In this document: positions 16,761 through 22,387 of the stretch, in pieces
How the letters are laid out: each line of letters opens with the position of its first letter
How positions within the stretch are numbered: position 1 is the stretch's first letter
Source: an uncultured Pseudomonadales bacterium
GTDB lineage: Bacteria; Patescibacteriota; Microgenomatia; UBA1400; PJMF01
DNA length: 48,971 bases
Direction of reading: 5' to 3'
Assembly (NCBI GenBank): GCA_964533345.1
Contig: CAZHLX010000002.1
Coordinates: 1-48,971, forward strand
Program-made: the position numbers and the translations under genes
Notes under the pieces: generated by a model
The model's database searches: none
What the model was told of the DNA's origin: nothing
What the model saw: only the letters and a program-made list of their open reading frames with translations

Positions 16761-16813
16761 AAGTACATTCTATGCTATACATTGAGATACATAAAGAAGT
16801 TATAAGGAGCCTT

Positions 16814-17338
16814 ATGTCAGACCAACCTTTAGTCCATTTAGTCACTGATGATGAAGTTAAGGGACAAGCTAAAGAAATTTTTGAACAAATAAAAGCTAAA
16901 ACTGGGAAAGTTCCTAAGTGGATGAGAGTTATGGCTAATTGCGAAGATGTTTTTGTAGGATTTTTTGGTCTTTTTAAAGCTTCAATGGATGATGCCCCAC
17001 TTGATTCTAAGCTTAAATGGAAAGTAGCATACTATGTTTCAGAACTTAACAAATGTGAGTTTTGCGTGAGTGTCTCTAAGATGCAGCTCATGGGCCTAGG
17101 TATGGCAGAGAGTGAAGTATCTGATCTAGAGAATACTTACAATGAAAGAGAAAAAATCGCCATTGAGTACTCAGAAGCTGCAACAGATCATGCATATAAT
17201 ATTGATCCTGAAGTTATGAGTAAAGCCAAGGCTGAGTTTAATGACGAAGAGTTGGTTGAACTAACCAGTGTAGTGGGATTATTTAACTTCATTAACCGCT
17301 TTAATGACTCTCTTGGTGTCTTACCCGACTCAGAATAG
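16814..17338 (+). CDS. AhpD-like / carboxymuconolactone decarboxylase family protein
   Basis: KVPKWMRVMANCEDV... and the CxxC-type CEFCV motif. I chose the ATG at 16814 because it has an AAGGAG Shine-Dalgarno. The ORF-track start at 16772 lacks one and overlaps a TGcTATACA -10-like box. Confidence 0.65.
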   Translation: MSDQPLVHLVTDDEVKGQAKEIFEQIKAKTGKVPKWMRVMANCEDVFVGFFGLFKASMDDAPLDSKLKWKVAYYVSELNKCEFCVSVSKMQLMGLGMAESEVSDLENTYNEREKIAIEYSEAATDHAYNIDPEVMSKAKAEFNDEELVELTSVVGLFNFINRFNDSLGVLPDSE

Positions 17339-17341
17339 CTC

Positions 17342-18577
17342 TTAACTAAACATTAACCATTCTGGTTTTAAGATTAGTAAAATACCAATTGCTAACATTA
17401 GTAGCCCACCTATCAACCTAGAAAAGTGAGCATACTTACTTTCAATGCCAGTCATTTTTAGAGTAATCATTGCTGCAATGAATACAAACAAATCATCAAT
17501 CATGAAGATGATGATATAGAACACTAAATACAAGTAATACTGCCAAGTTGGTAGGTTTGATAAAGACAAAATTTGAGTATAGATTGCTGGCAAACCAGCG
17601 CTACAAAAAAGCTCAACAATATTAACTGTAAAAGCCAAGAGGGTAATCCCTAATAAGGCTAATCCTAGTTTTTGTTGACTAACTAACTTCTTTAGTTTAG
17701 AAAAAACCTGCTGCCTCTTTTCAGTATCAGTAACTTTACACGCAGCATTCTTATTAGTGAAGTAATCATAAAGACTATAGATTCCTGCACCTAAAGCCAC
17801 CAAAGCAATAGTTAATCTTACCCAGAAAACTAAACCTAAAAATAAGAATAAGTTAAGCCAAGCAGAAAGAAACAAAAAGTAAACTAATCCAGAAGCCAAG
17901 ATAAAAGTAATCCCTAAGATCCACATTCTTTTTCTATCCTTCATTCCCAATAATAAGCTAATTAAAAAGACTAGAGTCCACATCGCACACGGATTAAAAC
18001 CATCTAATAGGGCAACAATAAAAGTGATTGCAGGGAGTGATAAATCTTTTAGATTAATTTTCCCAAAAATAGGCAAGCTTAATTGTCTATCTATCTCTAA
18101 AGGGACTTCTTTTTCATTGATACTAGAAGACACTTCAGCTTCATCATTTTTTTCAGTTGGCTTGGATTCTATAAACTCTGCCACCTGATCTTCACAAGAA
18201 CTATCCCAGCTATCTACACATTTTATTACTAAAGATTTAATTTCTCTTCCAGTTGTTTCTTCACTCAAATAACCAGTAATCGCTTGATTACCAATTAGTG
18301 TAAAAGGAACACCGCCCACTTGTAGACCTAGCTTCTCCCCAACCATCCTAAAAAGATTAGCATTTGCTCTGTTTTCAGAAACTTCAAAAGCTCTCAACTC
18401 CACTTGATCATACTCCTCAGACAAACCAAGTACTAATGAAGCAGCTTGAGAACAATGAGGACAAGTCTTTGAATGAAAGAAATTAATTATCACCTTATTC
18501 TCAACTTGAGCTGAGACTGGTGAAACCAGAACAAACAAAAAAGTAAAAACTAGCAATAAATATTTAATGAATTTCAC
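17342..18577 (-). CDS. Secreted thioredoxin-fold domain (CPHC) fused to a DsbD_2-like polytopic membrane domain
   Basis: A signal peptide is followed by FFHSKTCPHCSQA...GGVPFTLIG (Trx/Grx fold). The membrane domain has LLDGFNPCAMW and ELFCSAGLP cysteines in TM helices, like DsbD/CcdA-superfamily electron conduits. Confidence 0.6.
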   Translation of the reverse strand: MKFIKYLLLVFTFLFVLVSPVSAQVENKVIINFFHSKTCPHCSQAASLVLGLSEEYDQVELRAFEVSENRANANLFRMVGEKLGLQVGGVPFTLIGNQAITGYLSEETTGREIKSLVIKCVDSWDSSCEDQVAEFIESKPTEKNDEAEVSSSINEKEVPLEIDRQLSLPIFGKINLKDLSLPAITFIVALLDGFNPCAMWTLVFLISLLLGMKDRKRMWILGITFILASGLVYFLFLSAWLNLFLFLGLVFWVRLTIALVALGAGIYSLYDYFTNKNAACKVTDTEKRQQVFSKLKKLVSQQKLGLALLGITLLAFTVNIVELFCSAGLPAIYTQILSLSNLPTWQYYLYLVFYIIIFMIDDLFVFIAAMITLKMTGIESKYAHFSRLIGGLLMLAIGILLILKPEWLMFS

Positions 18578-18622: not shown

Positions 18623-19192
18623 TTAGTCTGCTTTAGCAGGTTTAATCTTAAGCTTCTTTTTCCAACCTAAATCAAGAGCAGACTCTATTTTTTTCTCAGC
18701 CTCTTCTAAATCCAAGCCCAACACGTGTGCTGTTTCTTGTTTAAATCGATTCATCACCATATAAAAAGTATTGCGCTTGCTGATTGTGAAATTCTTATCT
18801 TCATCTCTTTTCTCTTCCCAAAGTGTTTTAAGAACTTCAGATAATTCATGGAGAACATTATCACTGATAGTTCTCTTGACCTTCAATTGATTGAACTGGG
18901 CCTTAGTGTACTCACCTTGTCTTAAAAACTTTAGCTCTTCTTTCAAGGTAGTTTTATTGACTGGGAGCCTAATAGTGGTCTTATCAATATTTCCTAAGGG
19001 AATAGAGAGTTTAAGAGTTTCATTACGTCTAGTTTTGTAAAGAGGCTCAAAATAAATAATCTTATCTTTATCTCCATCGCTATTCTCAAACTTCTCTACT
19101 TTAGAAATTTTATGAACAACTCCAAACCTAATGATTACATCTCCTCTTTTTAGATCTTTTAATTCTTCAACCATAGATGGACATTCTAACAT
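18623..19192 (-). CDS. CarD/CdnL-like RNA-polymerase-binding regulator
   Basis: N-terminal LKRGDVIIRFGVVHKISKVEKF...YFEPL...LSIPLGNIDKTTIRLPV resembles the CarD_CdnL_TRCF domain. Confidence 0.55.
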   Translation of the reverse strand: MLECPSMVEELKDLKRGDVIIRFGVVHKISKVEKFENSDGDKDKIIYFEPLYKTRRNETLKLSIPLGNIDKTTIRLPVNKTTLKEELKFLRQGEYTKAQFNQLKVKRTISDNVLHELSEVLKTLWEEKRDEDKNFTISKRNTFYMVMNRFKQETAHVLGLDLEEAEKKIESALDLGWKKKLKIKPAKAD

Positions 19193-19229: not shown

Positions 19230-19266
19230 TTGCACAGAATTACTAATGAGACTACAATCTGTAGTA
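19230..19266 (+). promoter_or_regulatory. Sigma70-type promoter TTGCAC-17-TACAAT with an overlapping 16-bp palindromic operator O1 (ACTACAATCTGTAGTA, 19251-19266)
   Basis: The -35 is at 19230-19235 and the -10 at 19253-19258. The inverted repeat ACTACA-N4-GTAGTA contains the TACA/TGTA core typical of BlaI/MecI/CopY boxes. The ATG at 19266 is 7 nt after the -10. Confidence 0.5.
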
Positions 19267-19604
19267 TGTCAAATGATATGAGTTGCTGCTTAGGACCTCT
19301 AGAGAGAGAGATACTGGAAATTTCATGGGAAAAAGATTGTCCTAGTGTTAAGTGTGTTTTAGTTGAGCTTAATAAATCAAGAAAAAAAACTGACAAACTT
19401 GCCTATACTACAGTTATGACCATCATGAAGAGATTGGTTAAGAAGAAAATTTTAGTCAGAAAGAAAGATGGTCGCTGTTATCGTTATGAAACAAAAGAGA
19501 CGAAAGAAGAGTTTGTCAGAAGAGTCAGTAGTTGCACTATCCAAAGTCTAAAAAGCAAATTTGGAGATGTTGCAATTGAAGCCTTGAGAAAAGAACTAAA
19601 ATAA
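19266..19604 (+). CDS. BlaI/MecI/CopY-family winged-helix repressor
   Basis: LGPLEREILEISWEK...SVKCVLVEL...KLAYTTVMTIMKRLVKKKILVRKKDGRCYRYE is the penicillinase-repressor fold. I moved the start from the track's TTG at 19230, which is the -35 box, to ATG 19266. ATG 19278 is an alternative. Confidence 0.75.
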   Translation: MSNDMSCCLGPLEREILEISWEKDCPSVKCVLVELNKSRKKTDKLAYTTVMTIMKRLVKKKILVRKKDGRCYRYETKETKEEFVRRVSSCTIQSLKSKFGDVAIEALRKELK

Positions 19605-19612
19605 TATATTTC

Positions 19613-19631
19613 CAATGGTTGACAACCATTG
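19613..19631. promoter_or_regulatory. Perfect 19-bp palindrome CAATGGTTG-A-CAACCATTG centred on a TTGACA -35 box
   Basis: All 9+9 positions pair when checked base by base. No U-tract follows, so a DNA-binding site is more likely than a terminator. Confidence 0.4.
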
Positions 19632-19656
19632 CTTGGAGACACTACACTCCGTAGTA
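19619..19656 (+). promoter_or_regulatory. Promoter TTGACA-18-TACACT for dsbA-ccdA with operator O2 (ACTACACTCCGTAGTA, 19641-19656) over the -10
   Basis: O2 matches O1 at 14 of 16 positions and has the same arms, ACTACA...GTAGTA. An AAAGGA Shine-Dalgarno and the ATG at 19680 lie downstream. Confidence 0.5.
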
Positions 19657-19679
19657 CTCTTACACGAAAGGATTTTCTA

Positions 19680-20429
19680 ATGTCTAACAGTTATTCACCT
19701 AATAGTACAAAAAATTTTGTAATAGATAATTTTGGTCTCATCTTTTTAGCGGTGGCCTTTTTTGTGGGGGGCTTCTTTACAGGTTCCATGTGGACCGAAA
19801 ATAAAATGATGAAATCTGATACTGTTGTTCAAGTAGAAAAAGAAGCTGATCAGAAACCAACAGAAGAAAAAAATAATCTTGACCAAATGCCACAAATTAA
19901 TGGTGATGATCATTTCAGAGGAGCAAAAAATCCAAAGATCTACTTAGTTGAGTACTCAGATTATGAATGCCCATTCTGTCAGAAGTTCCACCCCACTATG
20001 GAACAAGTTGTGGAGAAATATGGTGATCAAGTAGCTTGGGTCTTTAGACACTACCCACTTAGTTTTCATCCTAATGCTCAACCATCGGCTGAAGCTGCTG
20101 AGTGTATTGCTGACAGAAATGGAAATGATGCATTCTGGTCATTTACTGATGAAATATTCGCTCAAAATGAAAAATTGGGTGGCAAGCTAAGTTCCGAAGC
20201 CATAGATGCAGCCATTACTGCTAGTGGGGCTGATCTCCAGGAGATAAAAACATGTATTGATAATGGTGAAATGACCGATATTGTTTCAGCACACCAAACT
20301 GGTGGAGCCGCAGCAGGAGTTTCTGGTACTCCAGGAACTGTATTGGTAACAACCGATGGCCAATATGAGCTAATTGGTGGAGCTTTACCATTCGCACAAG
20401 TTGAACAAATAATTCAAAAATACTTGTAA
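19680..20429 (+). CDS. Membrane-anchored DsbA/BdbD-like thiol:disulfide oxidoreductase (CPFC)
   Basis: An N-terminal TM anchor is followed by VEYSDYECPFCQKFHP...FRHYPLSFHPNA...GVSGTPGTVL (the cis-Pro loop). I chose ATG 19680 over the track's TTG at 19629, which lies inside the promoter. Confidence 0.8.
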   Translation: MSNSYSPNSTKNFVIDNFGLIFLAVAFFVGGFFTGSMWTENKMMKSDTVVQVEKEADQKPTEEKNNLDQMPQINGDDHFRGAKNPKIYLVEYSDYECPFCQKFHPTMEQVVEKYGDQVAWVFRHYPLSFHPNAQPSAEAAECIADRNGNDAFWSFTDEIFAQNEKLGGKLSSEAIDAAITASGADLQEIKTCIDNGEMTDIVSAHQTGGAAAGVSGTPGTVLVTTDGQYELIGGALPFAQVEQIIQKYL

Positions 20430-20431
20430 AA

Positions 20432-21184
20432 ATGCCTGATCTAAGCCTGCTAGATGGTTCTGAAGTTAATTTATTGATAGCTTTTTTAGCGGGAGTCATC
20501 ACTTTCTTTGCAAGTTGCCTACTACCCTTAGTTCCAACTTATTTAGCTTACCTATCTGGAGTCTCATTGAATGATGCTGATAATGGGCAACAAAGATGGA
20601 GAATATTTCAAACAGGTTTACTATTTGTAATTGGTTTCATCTCCACTTTTGTTCTACTGGGACTGGCTGCAAGTCAGTTCGGAGGACTAATCAACTCTTA
20701 TAGAGATATCGTAGAAAAAGTTGCTGGCGTTTTATTTGTCTTGCTTGGATTATTCATGCTGGGAGTTTTTAAAAGTTCTTTTTTAAGTAAAGAAAGGAAG
20801 TTCAACCTCCATGGAAGATTTCAACAATACAAATCTTTACATGCAATATTAACAGGAGTAGCCTTTGGGTTTGGCTGGACACCATGCATTGGTCCTGTAT
20901 TGGCTGTAATCTTATTTTGGGCTGCCCAAGCAGACTCATCTCTAAAAGGAGCCCTTCTACTAACTGTCTACGGGATTGGGTTGGGGATACCCTTTTTGAT
21001 AATTTCACTTGGATTTGAGAAAATTATTCCCTGGTTAAAGAGAAATGCTCATATCTCTAAAGTAACTAATCTTATTTCTGGAATTATTATTCTGCTCGCT
21101 GGAATTTTACTAATCAAAGGTGACTTCCAAGAGCTTTCACTTTTTATCTTAAGACTCTTCAACCTAGAGGGACTATCCATCTAA
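20432..21184 (+). CDS. ccdA: Cytochrome c biogenesis/thiol-reductant transfer protein CcdA (DsbD TM-domain family)
   Basis: Six TM helices carry the two conserved cysteines (FFASCLLPLVP and WTPCIGPVL). The start is 2 nt after the dsbA-like stop. Confidence 0.85.
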   Translation: MPDLSLLDGSEVNLLIAFLAGVITFFASCLLPLVPTYLAYLSGVSLNDADNGQQRWRIFQTGLLFVIGFISTFVLLGLAASQFGGLINSYRDIVEKVAGVLFVLLGLFMLGVFKSSFLSKERKFNLHGRFQQYKSLHAILTGVAFGFGWTPCIGPVLAVILFWAAQADSSLKGALLLTVYGIGLGIPFLIISLGFEKIIPWLKRNAHISKVTNLISGIIILLAGILLIKGDFQELSLFILRLFNLEGLSI

Positions 21185-21214: not shown

Positions 21215-22387
21215 ATGACTTGGAAAAGAGAACATACTATTATCGGAGCGATTAAGGTCACTGAAGTTCTCGGTTTTTCTCTTATTCTTCCATTCTTACC
21301 CTTCTATGCTCAAAGCTTGGGTGCTAACCCTTTTCAAGTAGGATTGGTACTAATGACCTTTTCTCTATTTCAGTTTATCTCTGCACCAATCATGGGAAAG
21401 CTAAGTGATGCCTATGGAAGAAGACCTCTGTTAATAATTTCTCAAATCTCTACTTTCGTAAGTTTCATTATTCTAGGTTTTGCTAATAACCTTTGGATGC
21501 TTTTTCTATCAAGAATAATAGATGGTTTGTTTGGGAGTAATTTTACAATTGCTCAGGCATACCTAAGTGATATCACTCCCAAGAATGATCGCACTAAAAT
21601 CTACAGTCTTACTGGAATCTCATTTAGTATTGGCTTTTTTATTGGTCCAGCATTAGGAGGTTACTTATCAAAATTTAGTTTCTCTTTGCCTTCATTTCTA
21701 GCTGCAGCGATGGCTCTGATAACTATCATCACTACTTATGTTTATTTGCCAGAAACAGTGACTCGTAAAAAAAGATTTGTTTGGTCATGGGAAATTTTGA
21801 AACTCAAAAGATTTTCTCTTTTAAGAGAAAAGCCAGCAATATCTTTACCTCTATGGGAGTTCTTTCTCTATGTACTAACTCATGGTTTATGGGTGAGTAG
21901 TTTTGCCCTCTATGCTGAGAGGCAGCTAGGATTTGACTCAGAGGCTACCGGGTATCTATTTGCAGTAATTGGTGGAGTTAGTATCTTTATTAAGGGACTA
22001 ATTCTCCCACAACTACTTAAAAGATTTAATGAGGACAAACTCCGTATCTGGGGAGCAATCTTAATTGTACTTTCTTTAGTAATAACTCCTTTTATCCAAT
22101 TTGGATACCTATTAACAATCTCAACAATCATGTTTACTTTTGGCGCCAGTATTCTTAGACCAAGCTTAACAGCTCACATTTCTAGAAATGCTCCAGAGAA
22201 AAAACAAGGTGAGATGATGGGAATCACTGATTCGTTAGGAAGTATTTCTCAGATAATTGGACCATTTGTTGGAGGATTCTTGATCAAAAATTTCTTTCCT
22301 GGAAGTCTAGGAATAGCAGCAGCTAGTATTATGATGATCGGTCTAGTTATCTTAATAATGGATAAAAGAATAATTTCTAAAAGTTAG
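21215..22387 (+). CDS. MFS transporter (12-TM, drug/H+ antiporter-like)
   Basis: MFS motif A-like GKLSDAYGRRPLL plus about 12 hydrophobic helices. Confidence 0.8.
   Translation: MTWKREHTIIGAIKVTEVLGFSLILPFLPFYAQSLGANPFQVGLVLMTFSLFQFISAPIMGKLSDAYGRRPLLIISQISTFVSFIILGFANNLWMLFLSRIIDGLFGSNFTIAQAYLSDITPKNDRTKIYSLTGISFSIGFFIGPALGGYLSKFSFSLPSFLAAAMALITIITTYVYLPETVTRKKRFVWSWEILKLKRFSLLREKPAISLPLWEFFLYVLTHGLWVSSFALYAERQLGFDSEATGYLFAVIGGVSIFIKGLILPQLLKRFNEDKLRIWGAILIVLSLVITPFIQFGYLLTISTIMFTFGASILRPSLTAHISRNAPEKKQGEMMGITDSLGSISQIIGPFVGGFLIKNFFPGSLGIAAASIMMIGLVILIMDKRIISKS

Follow-up and report, generated by a model that had tools for sequence, protein, structure and literature searches.

The sequence analysed here, hereafter called the window, is the stretch of 48,971 nucleotides (nt) at positions 1 to 48,971 of contig CAZHLX010000002.1 from assembly GCA_964533345.1 of a Patescibacteriota bacterium. 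It carries a gene for a repressor of the BlaI/CopY family, followed by genes for a DsbA-like protein and for CcdA. The regulatory wiring of this locus, which comprises the repressor, two operators and the dsbA-ccdA pair, is well supported by comparison with related loci. We consider it reasonably probable that the repressor is a one-component, cysteine-based switch for copper or thiol stress, derived from a two-component one, and that it controls its own gene together with dsbA-ccdA. We infer that the sensing step would consist of thiolates binding copper or becoming oxidised. The assembly examined comprises 905 kb, is 87 % complete and is rated 5.6 % contaminated. Homologues identify the organism as a Candidatus Pacebacteria bacterium.

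The repressor gene (19266-19604, + strand) codes for 112 amino acids, of which residues 9-107 match the Pfam family PF03965 (Penicillinase_R) with 62.4 bits against a cut-off of 22.6. It is the sole PF03965 gene in the genome. Among solved sequences, BlaI from Mycobacterium tuberculosis (2g9w) was nearest; BlaI and MecI of Staphylococcus aureus came next, and CopR was also among the closest. An AlphaFold2 model (predicted local distance difference test score, pLDDT, 79.5) contained helices at residues 11-21, 28-37 and 41-59, a wing at 63-76 and further helices at 80-99 and 101-111, i.e. a winged helix followed by two C-terminal helices, the third dimerisation helix being absent. The top 12 Foldseek matches of this model were all BlaI/MecI proteins (probability 0.99-1.00, template modelling score about 0.5). 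The family assignment made in a first-pass annotation, which a model had derived from the letters of the window alone, was thus upheld by both the profile match and the predicted fold. The same annotation had stated that a CopY-type C-terminal metal site was lacking, and this was also found: the score with the CopY model TIGR02698 was 36.6 bits, far under the cut-off of 121.95, and the C-terminus (...FGDVAIEALRKELK) has no cysteine past residue 90 and no CxCx4CxC motif.

Two operators flank the repressor gene. O1 (ACTACAATCTGTAGTA, also written ACTACAATCTGTAGT(A)) is found at 19251-19266 and O2 (ACTACACTCCGTAGTA, also written ACTACACTCCGTAGT(A)) at 19641-19656, both identified from the sequence, by pattern search and by conservation. 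In a direct comparison 14 of their 16 positions were identical. The true dyad of both is ACTAC-N5-GTAGT, i.e. TACA-N3-TGTA, and O1 reads ACTACA-ATC-TGTAGT in a 6-3-6 layout, spanning the -10 box of the repressor promoter and touching the start codon. This promoter (19230..19258, + strand) consists of the -35 box TTGCAC (19230-19235), a 17-nt spacer and the -10 box TACAAT (19253-19258); a promoter scan read it as TGCACA-16-TACAAT, one base off, both versions ending at 19258. Because the repressor ATG is situated 7 nt past the -10 box, the repressor mRNA is probably leaderless. The TTG of the -35 box, the TACAAT and the 7-nt gap to the ATG are kept in eight clade members and at the loci L007 and L107. 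O2 likewise spans a -10 box, that of the dsbA-ccdA operon promoter (19619-19648, + strand; TTGACA, 18-nt spacer, TACACT), which the scan ranked first in the region as a sigma-70-like match (10 of 12 positions) and which is kept across the genus. A Shine-Dalgarno sequence, AAGGA, follows at 19668-19672, 7 nt ahead of the ATG of the dsbA-like gene at 19680. The positions given earlier for the two operators, their agreement, the promoters and a 19-bp palindrome were all borne out by direct reading of the sequence, and the proposal that the operators lie on the -10 boxes of both promoters, where the repressor is predicted to bind, agreed with the promoter scan and with conservation.

The 19-bp palindrome (CAATGGTTGACAACCATTG, 19613-19631), whose centre is the -35 box of the dsbA promoter, is perfect solely in this genome. 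In the rest of the genus its left arm and the TTGACA are kept and its right arm is down to 6-8 of 9 complementary positions, and it was therefore rejected as a conserved second site. As RNA it would form an 8-bp stem without a U tract, and since it was not called by the terminator scan either, it was rejected as a terminator.

The two operators did not appear to be chance occurrences. Within the window the exact operator pattern occurred at O1 and O2 only. In the 905-kb genome, ACTAC-N5-GTAGT was observed 9 times with 0.45 expected. The genome scan for the 16-mer ACTACA-N4-GTAGTA that had been proposed in the first-pass annotation gave 5 copies, O1, O2 and three others, with 0.10 expected, and at most one was obtained in 40 Markov shuffles. 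For comparison with other genomes, loci were collected with a search seeded by an alignment of seven repressor sequences, and at least 531 loci were found to encode a relative. The gene order repressor-dsbA-ccdA-MFS (major facilitator superfamily) is kept in the clade of the window, i.e. in genomes of the same genus and on three further contigs (repressor identity 62-72 %), ccdA being missing in one genus genome (G004, locus L006). O1 is identical at six loci (L004, L005, L023, L025, L026 and L028) and degenerate in L006, and O2 is conserved at every clade locus while the bases flanking it drift. In other genomes, 60 non-identical sites adjoin BlaI-family genes, each with a -10 box embedded. 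The family-wide form is TACTACA[A/C]T-N2-[C/T]GTAGTA, with half-sites TACA and TGTA 3 bp apart, and was seen in Microgenomates, Saccharibacteria, Magasanikbacteria and others, the arms being constant and the centres variable. With a position weight matrix (PWM) built from these 60 family sites (null maximum 18.3), O1 scored 23.2 bits and O2 20.7.

No M56 protease was found in this genome with profile and Pfam searches, the only weak match being an HtpX/M48 gene. In five other genomes of the genus, three of them 97-99 % complete, the only match to M56 was likewise HtpX/M48, the scores in all six genomes being 17-28 bits. The weak match in the present genome, on contig C79, lies beside lemA and was rejected as a BlaR1 partner; the same gene is present in all genus genomes. 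In distant relatives, a membrane protein of 276-397 amino acids, with an HExxH motif and matches to both Peptidase_M56 and M48, is encoded between the repressor gene and dsbA. Because relatives have an M56 gene at this place, the absence of the sensor protease in this clade is, judging from gene order, a secondary loss. The first-pass annotation was thus right that a BlaR1 partner is missing, in the genome and in the genus, but the absence is a derived state and not an original property of the system. M56-bearing relatives also have a second operator after the M56 gene, directly before dsbA (L007, L011, L013, L017, L032, L043, L053, L054, L061, L072, L076, L096 and L103), and since it is found there despite the intervening gene, the twin-operator design is evidently ancestral.

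The M56 proteins of Patescibacteria (L007, L010-L017, L032-L107) end in an extracytoplasmic tail with the motif C-x(4-7)-C-x(3-4)-C. Chloroflexota homologues have zero tail cysteines, and most Bacillota homologues have a single C-terminal cysteine right after the last membrane helix and no tri-Cys tail. No penicillin-binding sensor domain was found, the M56 proteins of the relatives having short tails. Other genes located behind the second operator in relatives encode a GILT/Trx (thioredoxin) protein, HMA-DsbD_2-cupredoxin fusions and DsbD_2-cupredoxin proteins, and in the closest M56-bearing sister genome a further operator, its third, separates a DoxX gene from one of the plastocyanin/azurin family. 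On comparison of these loci, the ancestral cassette is reconstructed as repressor, tri-Cys-tailed M56 protease, operator and either dsbA (sometimes with ccdA) or copper-linked genes. The new element in the window is a protease-less derivative with a cysteine-rich repressor. In cassettes of the Daviesbacteria type (L060, L074, L077, L080 and L101), a conserved membrane protein of about 90 amino acids (...LRVPKPNLQIVVLGLIAVITLFQT...), for which zero family matches were obtained, is encoded behind the second operator.

The repressor contains six cysteines, at residues 7, 8, 25, 30, 71 and 90. All 14 clade members compared have C25 and C30, within the motif CP[S/N]V[K/R]C, and the M56-linked sister P0015 (locus L007) has neither; C7 is present in 12 of the 14. 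In the first-pass annotation the N-terminal vicinal pair had been singled out. This pair (C7/C8) is present, but it is not the conserved feature, since C8 varies and C25 and C30 do not. According to the model, C30 would be part of the first turn of helix 2 and C25 of the loop preceding it, with C7 and C8 just ahead of helix 1.

The cleavage site has changed as well. In a profile alignment, a phenylalanine of the family aligns with the scissile Phe102 of BlaI/MecI, and this residue is kept in 17 of 17 aligned repressors that are M56-linked and dsbA-associated. The repressor of the window has Ala106-Leu107 at the position of the scissile Asn101-Phe102; throughout its clade, leucine stands for phenylalanine and the protein ends five residues later, so that the last helix is lost. 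Continued cleavage of the BlaR type is argued against because the scissile-aligned Phe is Leu and the last helix is absent. A second protease-less dsbA-ccdA lineage (L081 and L099) also has leucine at this position and is cysteine-rich (VC-LGPLE, ECPCNVRSVC), and it is placed elsewhere in the repressor tree, which is based on 120 columns and has weakly supported deep branches. Among 74 M56-linked repressors the median cysteine count was 0 and the maximum 3, and in the two protease-less, cysteine-rich dsbA-ccdA clades the counts were 2-6. The invariance of C25 and C30 and the CPC...C cluster in the second lineage suggest selection on thiols. A cysteine-based switch, as had been proposed at first, is still the best guess and is strengthened by the clade-invariant C25-x4-C30 that the M56-linked sister does not have.

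These observations can be combined in the following model. A repressor dimer would cover both -10 boxes, shutting off its own gene and dsbA-ccdA. In the clade the protease has been lost, the cleavage-site Phe exchanged for Leu, the last helix lost and Cys25-x4-Cys30 gained together with Cys7 or Cys8. Derepression would then no longer occur by proteolysis but through the new thiolates, which would bind Cu(I) or another thiophilic metal, or be oxidised or alkylated. The output would be an inducible reducing or isomerising branch in the envelope, analogous to ScsC/ScsB and operating alongside a housekeeping VKOR and a second DsbA, and would repair disulfides damaged by copper or oxidants.

The genes behind O2 are compatible with such an output. 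The DsbA-like (ScsC-like) gene (19680-20429, + strand) encodes a membrane-anchored protein of 249 amino acids with a CPFC active site, matching Thioredoxin_4 with 72.5 bits and DSBA with 47.8 bits. In a phmmer search against solved structures its best match was 4n30, deposited as a protein disulfide isomerase, behind which the ScsC entries 4gxz (2e-12), 4xvw, 6nen and 6mhh ranked. The ccdA gene (20432-21184, + strand) starts 2 nt past the dsbA stop codon and codes for 250 amino acids, which match DsbD_TM (70.2 bits, residues 14-227) and DsbD_2 (54.9 bits); the protein consists of the membrane core only, and its membrane cysteines sit in FASCLLP and WTPCIGP. It is followed by a gene for a Tet/MdtG-like MFS transporter (21215-22387, + strand; Pfam MFS_1, 212 bits). 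Since the terminator scan found nothing terminator-like between ccdA and this gene, it may be co-transcribed with ccdA or have its own promoter, and it is a putative regulon member only.

Other disulfide enzymes were found elsewhere in the genome. Contig C13 encodes a stand-alone VKOR of 158 amino acids (locus L020:1235-2399), and the gene next to it specifies a fusion of an ArsR-type regulator with a metal-binding YHS domain. There is also a second DsbA paralogue, which has the active site CPAC and is encoded in a suf/ferredoxin neighbourhood. No DsbB was found in the genome search. The organism does not lack an oxidative partner, because VKOR and the second DsbA exist. The most plausible reading, by analogy, is that dsbA-ccdA would form an inducible branch for reduction or isomerisation, in addition to the housekeeping oxidative one. 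The first-pass annotation had suggested a reductase or isomerase role for the DsbA-like protein and CcdA, and this suggestion gained weight from the closest solved relatives, which include ScsC, the partner of the DsbD-class protein ScsB. Its further suggestion that cysteine-rich pilins are clients of the pathway found no support, because no operator adjoins pilus genes in the window or in the genome scan.

Besides O1 and O2, the three matches to the 16-mer pattern were located upstream of a nitroreductase gene, in the spacer between lon and a small gene, and within a gene. The nitroreductase gene (PF00881, C1:56782-57401) has a perfect 6-3-6 site, ACTACACAATGTAGT, 15 nt before its ATG, with the top PWM score of 23.5. 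It may be that the gene was acquired recently and has been brought into the regulon, or that its contig is a contamination. The small gene (C7:23357-23434, + strand) has a strong Shine-Dalgarno sequence and a terminator and encodes a peptide of 25 amino acids with 8 cysteines (MCGDCGCGHEEEKKESCDCGEDCDC), which from its sequence looks like a metallothionein. Its palindrome lies at C7:23290-23304, between the peptide gene and the divergent lon. The genus genomes G001 and G002 both encode homologues of the peptide, and in either case the identical palindrome, ACTACTTGCTGTAGT, precedes the gene by about 50 nt. In G003, a genus genome without the repressor, the palindrome is destroyed and the peptide open reading frame (ORF) is cut to 15 codons. 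The metallothionein-like peptide gene and the nitroreductase gene are candidate further targets, as judged from these sites.

Some other sites were dropped. One upstream of the ATP synthase operon (C30:6981, 21 bits), recalling the BlaI regulon of M. tuberculosis, was discarded because conservation was seen neither in three genus genomes nor in relatives further away, and motif copies inside a Ham1-like gene (on C47 and in G001, G003 and G004) are accounted for by the conserved coding sequence. Separately, a palindrome with ACTAC/GTAGT arms and variable centres was observed 80-240 nt upstream of a xerC-like gene in four genomes (C5:9217-9239 and loci L127, L131 and L123). In the present genome it reads TACTACTAC-TATAA-GTAGTAGTA and lies inside a 1.2-kb ORF-poor spacer. 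An Rfam search there gave no match; the palindrome may represent a dif-like site or a further operator.

Among known systems, PetR/PetP of Synechocystis sp. PCC 6803 combines a BlaI/CopY-family regulator with a sensor-less BlaR protease and acts in a copper-dependent manner on a GACA-N3-TGTC operator (Garcia-Canas et al., bioRxiv 10.1101/2020.07.31.226407). The system of the window shares with it the regulator family and the operator form xACA-N3-TGTx with 3-bp spacing, and the relatives of the locus share a sensor-less, BlaR-like membrane protease and outputs that include cupredoxins. It differs in that there is no protease partner in this genome or genus, that the repressor has Leu at the position of the cleavage Phe and a clade-specific set of cysteines, and that the output consists of a DsbA-like protein and CcdA rather than plastocyanin and cytochrome c6.

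CopY/CopR of Firmicutes belong to the same fold family and are one-component regulators without a protease, with two promoter-overlapping operators and TACA/TGTA half-sites, which are typical of BlaI, MecI and CopY (PMC7253601); cysteine thiolates would be the sensing ligands in both, as proposed here. The CopY operator is RNYKACANNYGTMRNY and the cop box KACA-NN-TGTM (PMC7253601). CopY and BlaI boxes have 2-bp spacing, whereas 3 bp separate the half-sites here; CopY-type TACA-N2-TGTA occurs in three copies in the genome, none of them at this locus. Furthermore, the present repressor has no C-terminal CxCx4CxC, its cysteines instead being located at the N-terminus, in the loop that leads into helix 2 and in the first turn of that helix, and neither copA nor copZ is under its control.

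With BlaI/BlaR1 and MecI/MecR1 of Staphylococcus and Bacillus and BlaI/BlaR of M. tuberculosis, the locus has in common the PF03965 winged helix with a helical dimerisation domain and, as predicted from the promoter palindromes, autoregulation. In contrast to these, it has no M56 partner, there is no penicillin-binding sensor anywhere in the lineage, the scissile Asn-Phe is Ala-Leu, the last helix is missing and the output includes no beta-lactamase or PBP2a. Most BlaR-like proteins lack a penicillin-binding domain and are mostly unrelated to beta-lactams, their signals being largely unknown (PMC13492132, on CenIR). Like CenIR of Clostridioides difficile, the relatives of the locus have short-tailed, non-penicillin-binding BlaR-like proteases controlling envelope genes; in the window the protease is wholly gone, and the tri-Cys tail of Patescibacteria is not described for CenR.

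The scs operon of Salmonella has been described as copper-induced. It is controlled there via the Cpx system rather than by a BlaI-type repressor. ScsC works with the DsbD-class membrane protein ScsB (PMC3322552), and as in ScsC/ScsB (PMC5524982, PMC3322552, PMC11634996), a DsbA-like protein of thioredoxin fold is encoded in the window beside an electron transporter of the DsbD superfamily. CcdA here is, however, minimal (250 amino acids) and lacks the periplasmic domains of ScsB, and the DsbA-like protein is membrane-anchored. Literature searches for BlaI linked with DsbA, or with Saccharibacteria, found no paper, and a search for BlaR1 together with Patescibacteria found two beta-lactamase surveys only.

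Several observations weigh against a cysteine-based switch of this kind, or limit how far it can be specified. C8, C71 and C90 are variable within the clade, and residues 21-30, which include the invariant pair, are the least confident part of the structural model (mean pLDDT 66). A third protease-less lineage (L008, L030 and L031) has zero cysteines and retains the Phe, so that protease loss need not bring cysteine gain and the association is not absolute; the well-supported branches of the repressor tree are, moreover, compatible with a single protease loss. As for the proposed regulon, nine related genomes lack the nitroreductase gene, which leaves its site without counterparts for comparison, and the lon/peptide site scores 16.8 with the PWM, under the null maximum. 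The genome G003, without a repressor gene, still has a perfect O2 before dsbA, so that O2 might be conserved in large part on account of the promoter embedded in it, unless the repressor was lost only recently. The sequencing runs containing the locus are DNA only, from seawater metagenomes of one study, and among the public runs searched there were no RNA runs with this locus sequence. Finally, copper and thiol oxidation both fit the evidence as the signal. G003 itself (L146, G003:C2:6000-11000) is 99 % complete; the genes for the repressor, CcdA and the MFS transporter are lost from it, the dsbA promoter with its perfect O2 standing directly after the gene for the CarD-like neighbour described below.

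Oxidation of cytoplasmic thiols, or stress by electrophiles, may be the signal instead of copper, as with OhrR, YodB or QsrR. A C25-C30 or intersubunit disulfide, or S-alkylation, would then free the repressor and raise envelope reductant, the efflux pump and the nitroreductase. The best off-locus site, the perfect 6-3-6 palindrome before the nitroreductase gene, fits this explanation, as do the MFS exporter gene behind ccdA throughout the clade, the AhpD-like gene and the gene for a Trx-membrane fusion that adjoin the module, and the modelled positions of C25 in a loop and C30 in the first turn of helix 2, which would resemble a stretched CxxC. However, the nitroreductase is confined to this genome, a metallothionein-like peptide is among the candidate targets, and the family context favours copper: the ScsC-like output, the HMA and cupredoxin outputs of relatives, the cupredoxin operator of the sister genome and the precedent of PetR/PetP point, by analogy, to this metal. 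An exclusively thiol-stress signal is possible, if somewhat unlikely.

According to another explanation, which we consider unlikely, the repressor senses nothing. It would be a signal-less, autoregulated homeostat buffering DsbA and CcdA, or its level would be set by HtpX, Lon, FtsH or an unlinked factor, and its cysteines would be structural (e.g. a Zn(Cys)4 clamp) or incidental. The cysteine-free, protease-less lineage is what would be expected in this case, and negative autoregulation from a leaderless transcript suffices for homeostatic control. HtpX/M48, a distant relative of M56, is kept in all genus genomes, and in three genomes a palindrome of the operator type precedes the lon promoter by about 20 nt. 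This explanation is nevertheless opposed by the leucine at the scissile-aligned position and by the missing last helix, which speak against continued BlaR-type cleavage, and by the conservation of C25 and C30 in all 14 members and the cysteine cluster in the second lineage, i.e. by the signs of selection on thiols. That the palindromes are not operators of this repressor at all, but chance or structural dyads associated with promoters or sites for another factor, is very improbable: although O2 persists in G003, the same core precedes the xerC-like gene in four genomes, where it could be dif-like, and the copy in the Ham1-like coding sequence is conserved through the encoded protein, in dozens of genomes from several classes of the candidate phyla radiation (CPR) the site recurs where a BlaI-family gene would be autoregulated, with arms kept and centres varying, its half-sites are those of BlaI, MecI and CopY (PMC7253601) and its spacing that of PetR, the genome has one PF03965 gene only, and the lon/peptide palindrome is gone in the repressor-less G003.

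The repressor gene has a divergent neighbour throughout the clade (18623-19192, - strand), also found in L008, which encodes a conserved protein of 180-189 amino acids. This protein gave zero Pfam or NCBIfam matches; judged by eye, it resembles the N-terminal domain of CarD/CdnL. The second ATG is its likely start, and since this ATG lies only 8 nt after a conserved TGTTAGAAT box, the mRNA of the CarD-like neighbour may be leaderless as well. Next to the repressor module, the region 16772-18577 encodes an AhpD/CMD-like protein and a protein of 411 amino acids, in which a secreted thioredoxin fold with a CPHC motif is joined with a polytopic membrane domain whose cysteines sit in NPC and CSAGLP. 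The membrane part of the latter matched no library family, and a second copy was not found in the genome. Public records of metagenome-assembled genomes with CPR-type loci are in part titled 'uncultured Pseudomonadales' or 'uncultured Gammaproteobacteria' (L028-L032, L037, L049, L054 and others), and such titles are an unreliable guide to taxonomy. L028 has the same size and content as contig C1 of G001.

Returning to the cysteine-based switch, a fuller account of it can be offered tentatively. A protease-coupled two-component sensor would have turned into a one-component sensor, possibly twice independently, in which a thiolate site at the N-terminus and before helix 2 (C7/C8, C25 and C30), unlike the C-terminal CxC of CopY, directly reads cytoplasmic Cu(I) or thiol stress. 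In a minimal CPR genome it would control a metallothionein-like peptide as well as an ScsC/CcdA-like branch for disulfide repair. Among the BlaI/BlaR-type relatives named here, PetR/PetP is the sole one with demonstrated copper dependence. The clade of the window provides a natural experiment in this respect: in a single clade, loss of the protease sensor goes together with a change of the cleavage-site Phe to Leu and with the gain of a conserved pair of cysteines. These changes point to a thiolate-reactive ligand, copper or an oxidant, for the whole Patescibacteria subfamily. The locus thus suggests a route by which signalling architectures may simplify in reduced genomes, and it predicts a small regulon for the repair of envelope disulfides in organisms beyond culture.

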